From an uncultured Oscillospiraceae bacterium (GTDB lineage: Bacteria; Bacillota; Clostridia; Oscillospirales; Oscillospiraceae): 64,000 nt of DNA. The notes below the pieces were generated by a model. The model was not told the DNA's origin, did not search any database, and saw nothing but the letters and a program-made list of their open reading frames with translations. The stretch covers positions 48,098 to 112,097 of the forward strand of contig CANRFA010000003.1 of NCBI GenBank assembly GCA_947629775.1. The letters run 5' to 3'. This document shows positions 42,501 through 46,297 of this stretch, one piece after another (position 1 is the first letter of the stretch; each line of letters begins with the position of its first letter). The translations under genes and the position numbers were made by a program.

Positions 42501-42848
42501 TCAGTCAAATGCAGCGATAACCACGATACAGGGTACCCAGTGGTTCTGATACTCAGCAATCAGCCGGTTCAGTTCCTCCTCGTAGTCATCCACGTCCCGG
42601 CCATACACCTGCTCCTCCATATCCTGCGTGAACTCCCAGGAATGAGTATAGAACCAGCCGGAATCCTCCGGCTGTTCGCAGTCCAGAATCTCGCCATCCT
42701 CCACCATGGTCCAGATGGCGCAGTCATGAAGCTCACAATCCGGGCCTGACATATCGCTGTCCACGTGGAATACCAGGGGCAGCTCGGGATGCCTGATAAT
42801 CAGGTCCCGCAGTTCCCTGGTATCATGAAAGATCCCCTTCATCGTCAT
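42501..42848 (-). CDS. Phage protein, paralogue of 42823-43191
   Basis: ELRDLIIRHPELP...HWVPCIVV. Confidence 0.65.
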   Translation of the reverse strand: MTMKGIFHDTRELRDLIIRHPELPLVFHVDSDMSGPDCELHDCAIWTMVEDGEILDCEQPEDSGWFYTHSWEFTQDMEEQVYGRDVDDYEEELNRLIAEYQNHWVPCIVVIAAFD

Positions 42849-43191
42849 CCTCCAGCCCTTCGCAATATACGATGATGCAGGGCACCCAGTGACCCTCATA
42901 CTCCCGTATGGTTTCCTCCAGCTTCAACTCCCAGCCGTCCAGCCCCTGCTCCTGATACTGTTCACTCAGGTCGCCTGTCAGGTCCGCACGGGAGGTATAG
43001 AAGCAGGTAGACTCCCTGGGCTGCTCACAGTCCAGCACCTCACCCAGCTCCGCCCATACGGCCTTGCAGCAGGTGTGCAGCCCCCAGCACCAGTCCTTGG
43101 GCTCATAGTCCACCCGCAGCACCATGGGGAGATCGGGGTATCTGATAATCAGATCCCGCAGCTCCTTAGCCTCCAGAAATACGCCAGCCAT
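42823..43191 (-). CDS. Phage protein, paralogue of 42501-42848
   Basis: ELRDLIIRYPDLP...HWVPCIIV. Confidence 0.65.
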   Translation of the reverse strand: MAGVFLEAKELRDLIIRYPDLPMVLRVDYEPKDWCWGLHTCCKAVWAELGEVLDCEQPRESTCFYTSRADLTGDLSEQYQEQGLDGWELKLEETIREYEGHWVPCIIVYCEGLEDDDEGDLS

Positions 43192-43657
43192 CCTCCTGCC
43201 CCCTCCAGCCGGTCAGAATCCGGGCGCAACCCTCTATCACGGCCAGCTTTTCTTCCTTATTCTTCGGGTTCATGGCATAACGGAATATCTCCATGGCACG
43301 CACACGGTCCCGCATCTCCGCCGTTTCCAGTACCCGGATATCGGCATGGAGCTTTGCCAGGCGGTTTTGCGTGGCCTCTATGCTCTTCATGTAAGAGTCC
43401 AGCTCCGCCCGTTCCTCTTTCAGGTTCTTCCGTTCCAGCTCCAGGGCCTGTCTGTCCGCTTCAAGCTGTTCCTTCGTCCTCTCCAGGGGGTCCAATACGC
43501 CTTCCTCCAGCAGGCCGGCATCCGTTGCCAGGAGCTTCAGGAGCCGGTAGCCCTGCCATGAATCCAGCACTTCACGGGCTGATCTTTCATCGCAGTCGTA
43601 AAACTCACAGTACCGCTTCAGGAGATCGTCCCCGTATATCCGTATTGGCTTAACCAT
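43166..43657 (-). CDS. Phage coiled-coil protein
   Basis: GGAGGGAG RBS; start MVKPIR. Confidence 0.6.
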   Translation of the reverse strand: MVKPIRIYGDDLLKRYCEFYDCDERSAREVLDSWQGYRLLKLLATDAGLLEEGVLDPLERTKEQLEADRQALELERKNLKEERAELDSYMKSIEATQNRLAKLHADIRVLETAEMRDRVRAMEIFRYAMNPKNKEEKLAVIEGCARILTGWRGQEDGWRISGG

Positions 43658-43854
43658 GCTTCTCCCTCCTCGTTTCACCCTCCAGTGCAGTGTAGGCCAT
43701 CCACGTCCTGTGGTACTCCTGGGGCTCCAGGTAGGTCCATCGCCCGTCCAGCATGGCATACATCCTCCGCTCCTTCACACCCTGCGGATTCGTCTGCATG
43801 CTCCACGCCACATACCCCTCCCCATCCACATACAGAGATGGGGTGTTGACAATG
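43650..43854 (-). pseudogene. 3' part of a phage gene interrupted by the tnpB remnant
   Basis: IVNTPSLYVDGEGY...EYHRTWMAY reads straight from the IS right end and has no start codon of its own. Confidence 0.5.
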
Positions 43855-44490
43855 GTGAATTACCCCGCCCCGGGGTGTCGCAAGCTCCACTTCCAGAAGG
43901 GGCGGGGCTTCCGGCAGTCCCGGTAAGAGGTCAAACTATTCATCGATGCCTATCCTATAAGGATTACCTTTGATTGGTTATGCCGGATTGTCCGGCATTC
44001 TTCTTCCGGCGCCTGCGCTTCAGAGTCCTGCGACCTATGTGTCTGGTCTTCCCCTTGTCATCGGTCCAGGTCAAAGGATGAGTGGCATCGAATTTCTCCT
44101 TCTGCCGCTTGCGGTTTTCGAGGAAGTGTTCCTCGTCCGGGTAATGGATGACGCGACAGTTGTTGAAATCCGGTTCCAGTCCAACCCCCTCGTCGTACAT
44201 CTCGGGGATTGCCTTTCTGCCTGTATTAGCGCTGCCATTCAGGTCAGAATTGATAGTTCTGTCCATTGGCTCGGAGTAGTAGAGGCCACGGAACTGAGGA
44301 TTGGTGGTCTTCCGTTTTCCGGTTGTTCGGTCCAGTTTTTGGACCTTCCGCCTTCCCTTATACACCGTTGGTCCTCTCACGCCGGAGAATTCAGGTTTCG
44401 TATCCCCTTCCTCGCCGTACACAGGAATCGGGTCTCTGTCCAGGAAGGACGCCTTACTGGTATAGGACTCCTCCTGCAGAAAAACGTGAG
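43855..44490 (-). mobile_element. tnpB: 5'-truncated IS200/IS605-type element: tnpB C-terminal remnant with right end and probable omegaRNA region
   Basis: QEESYTSKASFLD, FRGLY and INSDLNGSANTGRK; terminal GAAGCCCCGCCCC...GGGGCGGGG-TAATTCAC. Confidence 0.78.
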
Positions 44491-44555
44491 GGATCCTCTT
44501 TCTTCCACTCCAGATCCTCCAGCTTCAGTGGTCTGCGCTCTCGGAGCCTTGTGAT

Positions 44556-44681
44556 TTAGACCAGCTTCCCCATAAAGGATACGGACCTGCAGAGATCGCA
44601 AACCTCTTTGGGCGGACGCCCTGGGCAGGAAGGGCACCGCTGCTTTTTTGCGTAGATCTCCAGCTGGTCAAAGAAGTTCAT
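44556..44681 (-). CDS. Small Cys-containing ORF (possibly the 5' part of the interrupted gene)
   Basis: MNFFDQLEIY..CPSC..CDLC; the frame continues ITRLRERRPLKLEDL past the stop. Confidence 0.4.
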   Translation of the reverse strand: MNFFDQLEIYAKKQRCPSCPGRPPKEVCDLCRSVSFMGKLV

Positions 44682-44697
44682 GCTCTCAACCCCCTCA

Positions 44698-45129
44698 TCA
44701 TTCGTCATCTTTCGGTGGTCCACGGTCAACGATCCGCTGGCACGCCTCCAGGAGCCAGGTGGCAATGGGGTCCGGTCCCCAGTCACGCTTGCTGTTAATG
44801 GCTTTCAGGAGCTTCCTGGTATTCTCCGTCTCCCCGTCATAGCCCTCGAATACAAGGATCCAATCGTCCGGCTTCACTCGAAATATGGAGGCACACAAGT
44901 AGCTCACAGGACAGCTCTCGCAGTAGCCCCTAATAGGGGCACAGTAAGACCTCAGGTCCCGGAGCGTGATATCCGGCCAGGTTTTCTGGGGCTTTTCCTG
45001 GGGAGCGGGTTCCTGTATTTCGTCCAGGAGTTGCTTCCCGAAGGCCAACAGAAAGCCCAGGCAGGCAATCATGGCAACCAGGATCACGCACAGGGCCATA
45101 ACTTTCAGCATTCCTCCGCCTCCCTCCAC
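44698..45129 (-). CDS. Membrane-anchored Cys-containing phage protein
   Basis: TM helix, then LRSYC..CESCPVSYLC. Confidence 0.55.
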   Translation of the reverse strand: MEGGGGMLKVMALCVILVAMIACLGFLLAFGKQLLDEIQEPAPQEKPQKTWPDITLRDLRSYCAPIRGYCESCPVSYLCASIFRVKPDDWILVFEGYDGETENTRKLLKAINSKRDWGPDPIATWLLEACQRIVDRGPPKDDE

Positions 45130-45217
45130 TCCATAAGGGTCAGGGCCGTTACTTCCAGGAGGCCGGTATCCGTTTCCTCCACGCAGACATACAAGGTTTT
45201 GGTCTCTTCCATAGCAG

Positions 45218-45556
45218 TCACCTCAGTCTCTGTCCGCAGTGCCGGCAATACAGGTCCGACCTGCTGACCGGCATCCGGCACATCTCGCAGTGATAGTGGA
45301 TTCTTCCGCCTATAGACTCCGGGTAAGCCCCGCAGGGGCTGTCCAGGCGCTTGATGTTACGGTAAAGGGCCGTCTCCGGGCAGATTCGCAGCTTCCCATG
45401 GTCAAAAGAGGGTTCAGCGGTAAGACAAGTGATTCCAACAGACGCCCTGGGACCTGTGCTCGGGTCCTTCAGGTCGATTATCAGCTCGGTATCCACGGGG
45501 TAATCCATGCTTACCACGTACAGCGACATGGCGTCAAACATGTCATGTATCGTCAT
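45218..45556 (-). CDS. Phage protein with a C-terminal Zn ribbon
   Basis: CEMC...YCRHCGQRL. Confidence 0.6.
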   Translation of the reverse strand: MTIHDMFDAMSLYVVSMDYPVDTELIIDLKDPSTGPRASVGITCLTAEPSFDHGKLRICPETALYRNIKRLDSPCGAYPESIGGRIHYHCEMCRMPVSRSDLYCRHCGQRLR

Positions 45557-45559
45557 AGC

Positions 45560-46297
45560 TCAATCCTCCAGGGTGATACCCAGGTCAGAGGCCAGGCTCC
45601 ACACATGATCGATTACGGCGAGGGAATACATATCCGGGTGTTTCAGGGCACGGCGAATGGGCCCGGCCACGTCCCGATCCGGGTGTCCGCTGCCCGTGTA
45701 CCTGCACTGACACTTGTCGATAGGCCAGTGACAGGCAGGGCAGATGTCCGGTTTGATAATCCGGTCTCCGTTCCCACGCTCCCCGATGGGTCCCCTGGCG
45801 CAGGGGTACATCTCATAACACCGTCCCGTATAGCCACACATGGGCACCAGCAGCCCCCGAAACTCCGGGCAGGCATCCTCAATAAGGTCGCACATGCGCT
45901 GGACAGCCTGGCGGGTCTCCGGCGCAGCGGTGGAGCACAAACGCTTATTGGCTACGATAAGCAGGCTTTCCCCGTTTAGATCCCAGATCATGTCCACCGG
46001 GGCATCCTGGGGGGCTTTATTCCGGTCATACTCGTCCTGTCGGTCATTCCGCTGGGATTTCACGTACGGCTGGGCGTGTACGTGGCGTGTGAGGTGACCG
46101 GAAAGCCAGTAGGGGATCCCCTCAAACAGGACCGAAAATCTCAGGTAGCGGATAGGGGAGTGACGGGCCATCAGGATCCGGCGCTTCCACTCCATGTCCG
46201 GTGGATTCACGGGGTGCTTGCCAATCGTCACCAAGGCCCGGCGCTTAACCTCCATCCACTCCCGTTCTCCGGGATACTCCAACAGTTCCACATTCAT
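45560..46297 (-). CDS. thyX: ThyX-like flavin-dependent thymidylate synthase
   Basis: RHSPIR, HLTRH-x8-SQR (variant of RHRx7SxR) and KRLC. Confidence 0.72.
   Translation of the reverse strand: MNVELLEYPGEREWMEVKRRALVTIGKHPVNPPDMEWKRRILMARHSPIRYLRFSVLFEGIPYWLSGHLTRHVHAQPYVKSQRNDRQDEYDRNKAPQDAPVDMIWDLNGESLLIVANKRLCSTAAPETRQAVQRMCDLIEDACPEFRGLLVPMCGYTGRCYEMYPCARGPIGERGNGDRIIKPDICPACHWPIDKCQCRYTGSGHPDRDVAGPIRRALKHPDMYSLAVIDHVWSLASDLGITLED

Follow-up and report, generated by a model that had tools for sequence, protein, structure and literature searches.

A 5′-truncated IS1341-type tnpB remnant with a predicted ωRNA 3′ scaffold in a prophage

TnpB–ωRNA pairs are carried by IS200/IS605 elements, the ISDra2 TnpB of Karvelis 2021 reportedly being one example. 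Any IS605-family ωRNA targets the empty site of its own element. Members of the IS200/IS605 group that contain tnpB only are classified as IS1341-type (PMC10691335). Standalone ωRNAs work in trans, according to the portion of PMC10691335 that cites Altae-Tran 2021, and ωRNAs borne by PATEs are thought to depend on TnpB supplied in trans (Meers 2023 preprint, PMC10055086).

Here we analyse a locus within a 64,000-nt stretch of DNA (the window) from an uncultured Oscillospiraceae bacterium. A preliminary description had proposed that a truncated tnpB with an intact right end interrupts a phage gene, and that the remaining ωRNA could program a TnpB in trans against phages carrying the uninterrupted allele. 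Our results uphold the anatomy, and suggest that the locus is most probably an ordinary 5′-truncated IS1341-type relic, able neither to move nor to cut.

Anatomy and prophage setting of the tnpB remnant

The locus occupies the mid-part of a 168-kb contig. Every gene around it lies on the minus strand, so that the relic is co-oriented with the phage operon, and the prophage surroundings include an endolysin, two HNH endonucleases, a PAPS reductase and a DNA methyltransferase. The features are as follows.

43855..44490, minus strand: 5′-truncated remnant, about 636–639 nt, of a tnpB-only IS200/IS605-family (IS1341-type) element (blastn against its own genome and metagenomic contig L005; alignment A1)
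43964..44488, minus strand: tnpB 3′ fragment of ~175 codons plus TAA stop, from the RuvC-II Glu through the RuvC-III Asp to a basic tail (translation, identity to full-length TnpBs, alignment A4)
43855..43975, minus strand: right end and predicted ωRNA 3′ scaffold (covariance model R1, shared motifs, compensatory pairs)
43863..43911, minus strand: terminal stem-loop, GAAGCCCCGCCCC ... GGGGCGGGG (folds, helix pairing across relatives)
43835..43854, minus strand: predicted guide segment CATTGTCAACACCCCATCTC, phage DNA immediately 3′ of the right end (divergence point of right-end copies)
43650..43854, minus strand: 5′-truncated phage ORF, …IVNTPSLYVDGEGY…YHRTWMAYTALEGETRREKHG and stop (ORF list)
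44506..44520, minus strand: GGAGG, 7 nt and GTG, likely start of the phage gene cut by a deletion (sequence and ORF list)
44556..44681, minus strand: small upstream phage ORF, MNFFDQLEIYAKKQRCPSCPG…GKLV and stop (sequence and ORF list)

Two further sets of phage genes on the minus strand of the window were recorded. The 245-aa protein encoded at 45560–46297 has a partial ThyX match (PF02511, residues 92–145, E 2e-10) and a Cys-rich C-terminal extension, and is without a PHROG match. The adjoining small genes at 42501–42899 and 42823–43191 are paralogues (…ELRDLIIRHPELPLVFHVD… and …ELRDLIIRYPDLPMVLRVD…), neither of which matches Pfam or PHROG.

The minus-strand frame 44494–43964 reads IPHVFLQEESYTSKASFLD...RGLYY...INSDLNGSAN...RRTLKRRRRKKNAGQSGITNQR up to its stop, also containing FRGLYYSEPMDRTINSDLNGSANTGRK, and is still open over 176 codons. 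The fragment alone matched no Pfam or NCBIfam model. It is 50% identical to the C-terminus of the 609-aa TnpB on contig C48 of its own genome, and 69% and 61% identical, respectively, to two 637-aa metagenomic TnpBs, P0006 and P0007, both retrieved with a chimeric query. The C48 protein (P0004) scores above the Pfam cut-offs for PF01385 and PF07282 (OrfB_IS605, Cas12f1-like TNB), while precomputed Pfam annotation assigns PF01385 to P0006 and PF01385 with a faint PF07282 to P0007. In alignment A4 the homology begins at HVFLQEE and spans the last ~28% of the protein only. The RuvC-II Glu (EESYTS) and the RuvC-III Asp (NSDLNGSAN) are kept, both in invariant columns, and nothing remains of the N-terminal ~450 residues with RuvC-I, WED and REC. 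Local alignment judged against shuffled sequence found no tnpB-like sequence upstream of ~44494 in either DNA or protein; GGATCC and ATCTGG look-alikes upstream of 44494 were discarded, with alignment scores equal to those of shuffled sequence.

The preliminary description of a tnpB that is truncated, retains an intact right end and lies in a prophage is therefore supported by the translation, the TnpB homology and the exact terminus, and its claim that RuvC-I is absent by the comparison with full-length TnpBs and the lack of upstream tnpB homology. Judged by its sequence, the fragment is a gene piece rather than a TnpB, and cannot yield an active nuclease because RuvC-I, WED and REC are missing. 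The tnpA gene is indeed absent as well, but this is not a loss, since the full-length relatives on L005 and L006 carry tnpB only.

The TnpB clade in alignment A4 (P0004, P0006, P0007, P0008 and P0010) consists of long proteins of 500–640 aa with variable Lys/Glu-rich insertions, and is without a Cys zinc finger between RuvC-II (EESYTS) and RuvC-III (NSDLNGSAN). Close full-length TnpB relatives of the fragment were found neither among 400 genomes of the family (E<=1e-10) nor, by peptide patterns, in GTDB contigs.

Right end, predicted ωRNA scaffold and signs of decay

The terminal hairpin is formed by GAAGCCCCGCCCC (43911–43899) and GGGGCGGGG (43871–43863), and the element terminates with TTCAC at 43855 (…GGGGCGGGGTAATTCAC). 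Right-end copies on C4, C98, C125 and C116 of the same genome, and in the metagenomic loci L005 and L006, all carry ...GGTAATTCAC and diverge from the next base. The hairpin and the TTCAC end at 43855 thus agree with the preliminary description, and because the copies diverge directly after TTCAC, both its coordinates and its guide, beginning CATTGTCAACACCCC, are correct as a prediction. The 14- and 16-mers of this guide occur once in the genome, and the guides of all copies are genome-unique.

Within 43855..43975 the conserved motifs are a GTAATCC-TTA-TAGGATAG hairpin, TGAATAG, the terminal stem and GGGGTAATTCAC. The corresponding signature of the clade is a GTAAYCC-N3-GGRATAG hairpin just past the stop codon, a TGAATAG box and a terminal stem ending GGGGTAATTCAY. 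This ωRNA 3′ signature lies at 2214–2326 in L005, 4147–4259 in L006, about 1746–1866 in L009, about 2610–2715 in L012 and on the minus strand of L003 (C48), and is common to L009, L012 and C48, whose TnpBs are only 45–55% identical. RNAalifold returned 16 pairs, six of them with compensatory changes. When we specified the structure of the terminal module ourselves, it was 96% paired with three double-change pairs, compared to 43–60% when the partners were slid. The outer helix of the terminal stem-loop is 100% paired with two double changes, and the two unpaired cells of the inner hairpin (alignment columns 12/22) belong to the window copy and L012.

A covariance-model search for the ωRNA had been suggested as a check. 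Model R1, built from seven sequences and trained partly on the window copy, gave the window scaffold 117 bits (E 1.4e-26), and marked seven sites in the genome, namely those in the window, C4, C48, C98, C180, C116 and C125. No ωRNA family of Rfam matched at a permissive threshold. Over its last 100 nt the scaffold agrees with the consensus copy at 94 of 96 positions. The clade motifs, the covariation and the covariance model all point to a clade-conserved, covarying ωRNA 3′ scaffold at the right end, as the preliminary description had supposed.

A second 5′-truncated member of this subfamily is located at C4:147388–147656 (locus L002 1394–1662) and matches the window copy at 97.8% identity. 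It comprises the last 54 tnpB codons and the right end, about 271 nt, and its insertion point is the 3′ end of an EamA-type transporter gene. On the 5′ side the relic is joined to the interior of an AraC-like regulator copy, 74 nt of which also occur at the start of contig C56; the C4 relic is therefore another case in which a deletion removed the 5′ part of the element.

When L005 serves as outgroup, the shared 271 nt contain a single event derived in the window copy, a change of GGGG to GGAAG at 43890–43894. This tract is paired in every relative, and the conserved helix is broken in the window copy, whose predicted fold is −43.4 kcal/mol compared to −52.3 kcal/mol for the L005 consensus copy. 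The C4 relic has three derived events against the same outgroup, one of which removes 2 nt from the terminal stem. Of the six positions that distinguish the two relics, five (three events) fall in the last 120 nt of the scaffold. Small as these numbers are, purifying selection on the RNA would not be expected to give such a distribution. No promoter-like site was found in 43500–45300.

Left junction, flanking gene and sibling copies

The left breakpoint of the remnant lies somewhere within 44486–44494. The left end seen in L005, C47, C55 and C7 has a CCCCCGG-ACTTGT-CCGGGGG hairpin and a TTGACA/TACAAT promoter, neither of which occurs in the window; the proposed absence of the left end thus stands. 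In all four left-end flanks (L005 30–45 and the starts of contigs C55, C7 and C47), TTAT is found 5–6 nt ahead of a conserved CGGCGG and ~18–19 nt from the foot of the hairpin. A spacing of ~18–19 nt between TTAT and the hairpin is the geometry known for IS608. By its position, TTAT is likely the target motif, or TAM, of this TnpB family. The left junction in the window has no TTAT-type motif. The preliminary placement at ~44490 falls within the range given above. With neither a left end nor a TTAT-type motif, the junction is the end of a deletion and not an insertion boundary, and the deletion probably took some phage DNA too.

The preliminary description had also joined the two flanks in frame. 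The arithmetic is right (GAT CC|C ATT GTC), and the chance of an in-frame join is one in three, but the simple join is not the ancestral allele, because the joined frame is startless, a start signal lies in another frame and the left junction is without left end or TTAT. The left frame used for the join (…LKLEDLEWKKEDP) starts directly after the TAA of the upstream ORF (44556..44681), with no ATG, GTG or TTG in the joined frame after this stop. A strong Shine–Dalgarno sequence with GTG (44520–44506) is found six codons ahead of the junction; its frame is a different one and does not continue into the downstream ORF. The downstream ORF (43650–43854) stays open as far as a TAA within the right end. 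The earliest start codon available in its frame, GTG 43829, has no ribosome-binding site, and the stop of the ORF overlaps the next phage gene, which starts at ATG 43657; these features fit a phage gene whose 5′ part was severed by the insertion.

The uninterrupted allele that the preliminary description predicted did not emerge, and neither an empty allele nor a genuine homologue of the flanking ORF was present in any collection searched. Among 5.8 billion proteins the joined 89-aa protein found its own locus only, and the downstream ORF, an ORFan, matched only itself. The flanking ORF protein (P0002) likewise returned its own locus only from 300 genomes of the same family and from JGI metagenomes, IMG/VR and GTDB contigs, as did 4 kb of locus DNA against INPHARED and the neighbouring genes of the relic in IMG/VR. 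Full HMMER matches of P0002 among 1.8 billion representatives were spurious, being translated tandem repeats (P0128, 23 stretches). A search with the downstream neighbour gave two short ENA contigs, L020 and L021. L020 (787 bp), apparently from the same study as the window assembly, carries the same insertion, since its sequence starts within the right end and runs on into an identical flank, and it confirms the right junction only; L021 starts too late to cover that junction. At only ~79% identity, relatives within the genus are too distant for the empty site of the C116 copy to define the target motif.

The preliminary description had also called for a full-length cognate tnpB. The assembly contains one full TnpB, that of C48, and one Y1 transposase (C21). 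The C48 protein is only 50% identical to the fragment, but sibling elements can be traced at contig ends as follows.

C98:7140–7244, C125:5251–5326, C116:1–75 and C180:2906–2989: right ends at contig ends
C55:1–77, C7:1–67 and C47:1–400: left ends at contig ends

The right ends of C98, C125 and C116 are 96–100% identical to the window or L005, and that of C180 is of the C48 type; the C47 left end also includes the first 47 tnpB codons. Next to its right end, C125 matches the L005 flank without a difference over 100 nt, and L005 is a metagenomic contig with a 637-aa TnpB. The shortest assembled contig is 2502 nt, and because of this minimum a collapsed IS body of ~2.3 kb would be dropped. Full-length sibling elements are thus very probably present in the organism but unassembled, and a compatible TnpB is probably present as well, which bears out that part of the expectation. 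Over the fragment, the nearest full-length relative (L005 type) is 85% identical to the window copy in DNA and 69% in protein. The L005 tnpB may lack a proper start codon, which makes the activity of its product uncertain.

Origin of the locus and comparison with known systems

The ordinary relic that we favour would have arisen when a tnpB-only IS1341-type element inserted into the early region of a large prophage, within a small ORFan gene and in the orientation of the phage genes. A later deletion would then have stripped the left end, the promoter, about 450 tnpB codons and probably some phage DNA, so that tnpB codon ~455 now follows directly on phage sequence at about 44490. What is left, 175 codons and the right end, would be drifting neutrally; it cannot move because the left end is missing, and the scaffold would be nearly intact because the truncation is recent. 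Our data show the anatomy, the family, the exact right end, the missing left-end and N-terminal sequence and the scaffold lesion. We infer the order of these events and the neutrality of the drift, and neutral decay is judged from only a handful of substitutions. The open 176-codon frame, the 94/96 scaffold, the co-orientation and the probable siblings could be held against decay; all of them fit a young relic, and also use in trans.

Use in trans would make the locus a functional orphan ωRNA: an RNA produced by read-through of the phage operon, with phage DNA to the right of 43855 as guide, would be loaded in trans by a sibling TnpB, and the complex would cut phages with the ancestral allele of TAM and target, either excluding them or driving homing of the insertion. 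Such a system appears mechanistically sound and is already a known kind of thing, with literature precedents in trans-acting standalone and PATE-borne ωRNAs (PMC10691335, PMC10055086). The clade covariance model gives the scaffold 117 bits and none of the conserved motifs is missing from it, read-through transcription would follow from the co-orientation with the phage genes, seven contigs terminate in left or right ends of very similar elements, whose collapsed ~2.3-kb IS body would be dropped by the 2.5-kb cut-off, and the C125 flank equals that of L005, which encodes a 637-aa TnpB. However, the relic is without its own promoter, and the derived lesion in a conserved helix costs about 9 kcal/mol. 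The nearest full-length TnpB is only 69% (protein) and 85% (DNA) identical over the fragment and possibly without a proper start codon, and the sole assembled TnpB is 50% identical. Furthermore, the target allele is absent from every collection searched and the sister relic on C4 is clearly decaying. We therefore regard a functional orphan ωRNA as unlikely. The more elaborate proposal of a phage-borne, nuclease-less guide module, in which the relic ωRNA would be made in the lytic phase and use a host TnpB to cut co-infecting relatives with a TTAT-CATTGTCAAC… allele, we consider quite improbable.

If the left junction were chimeric, as might happen in a fragmented metagenome-type assembly, the real locus would contain a full-length element. 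Contigs break at every other copy of the relic's IS, and the independent 787-bp L020 backs the right junction only. A mis-join is nonetheless unlikely because no part of the junction 131-mer longer than 19 nt recurs in the genome; the locus is also mid-way in a 168-kb contig, and the 639-nt copy is no collapsed repeat, since it belongs to a distinct subfamily, 85% identical to the L005 type. Taken together, we give an artefact of assembly very little credence. The fragment might also be expressed as a novel small protein, such as a C-terminal TnpB domain that competes for ωRNA or DNA, which would be consistent with the frame open over 176 codons and with an internal GTG that gives a 152-aa ORF. 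This GTG is without a ribosome-binding site, translation from the phage GTG at 44508 would enter the fragment in another frame, and the 152-aa ORF is not on record by exact-sequence look-up, which leaves such a product barely credible.

As it stands, the relic matters little, being another decayed IS remnant at a time when trans-acting orphan ωRNAs have already been described. Were it true that a prophage relic arms a host TnpB against rival phages, transposon guide RNAs would be linked to phage–phage competition, and a phage guide module would amount to RNA-guided superinfection exclusion or to homing of the insertion between phages. The analysis has two by-products of greater use, a 3′ ωRNA signature (GTAAYCC…GGRATAG, TGAATAG, GGGGTAATTCAY) with a likely TTAT target motif for a clade of long, zinc-finger-less TnpBs outside Rfam, and a clear case of a 2.5-kb contig cut-off concealing active IS copies in draft genomes.

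Compared to IS1341-type TnpB–ωRNA elements, the locus is alike in that the predicted ωRNA covers the 3′ end of tnpB together with the right end and would take its guide from the right-end flank, and in that the left and right ends of its full-length relatives have subterminal hairpins with IS608-like geometry. Of the IS200/IS605 hallmarks, the window copy has the right-end subterminal hairpin and the conserved terminus, and is without the left end and TAM. It differs from IS1341-type elements in keeping only the last ~28% of the gene without left end or promoter, and in belonging to a clade of long TnpBs (500–640 aa) without a Cys zinc finger, whose ωRNA is outside Rfam. Like standalone and PATE-borne ωRNAs, it is a scaffold with no nuclease of its own, and effector-bearing copies are probably present in the same genome. 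PATEs, however, keep both ends and are mobilised, whereas the window copy was stripped of its left end by deletion, carries 525 nt of dead tnpB and is immobile; it is not a PATE because the left end is missing. The closest likeness is to ordinary truncated IS pseudogenes, with which the locus shares a one-sided deletion, lost function, copy-specific lesions and a second relic in the same genome, and from which it differs in nothing of substance, its one peculiarity being that what remains happens to be an RNA-guide module.
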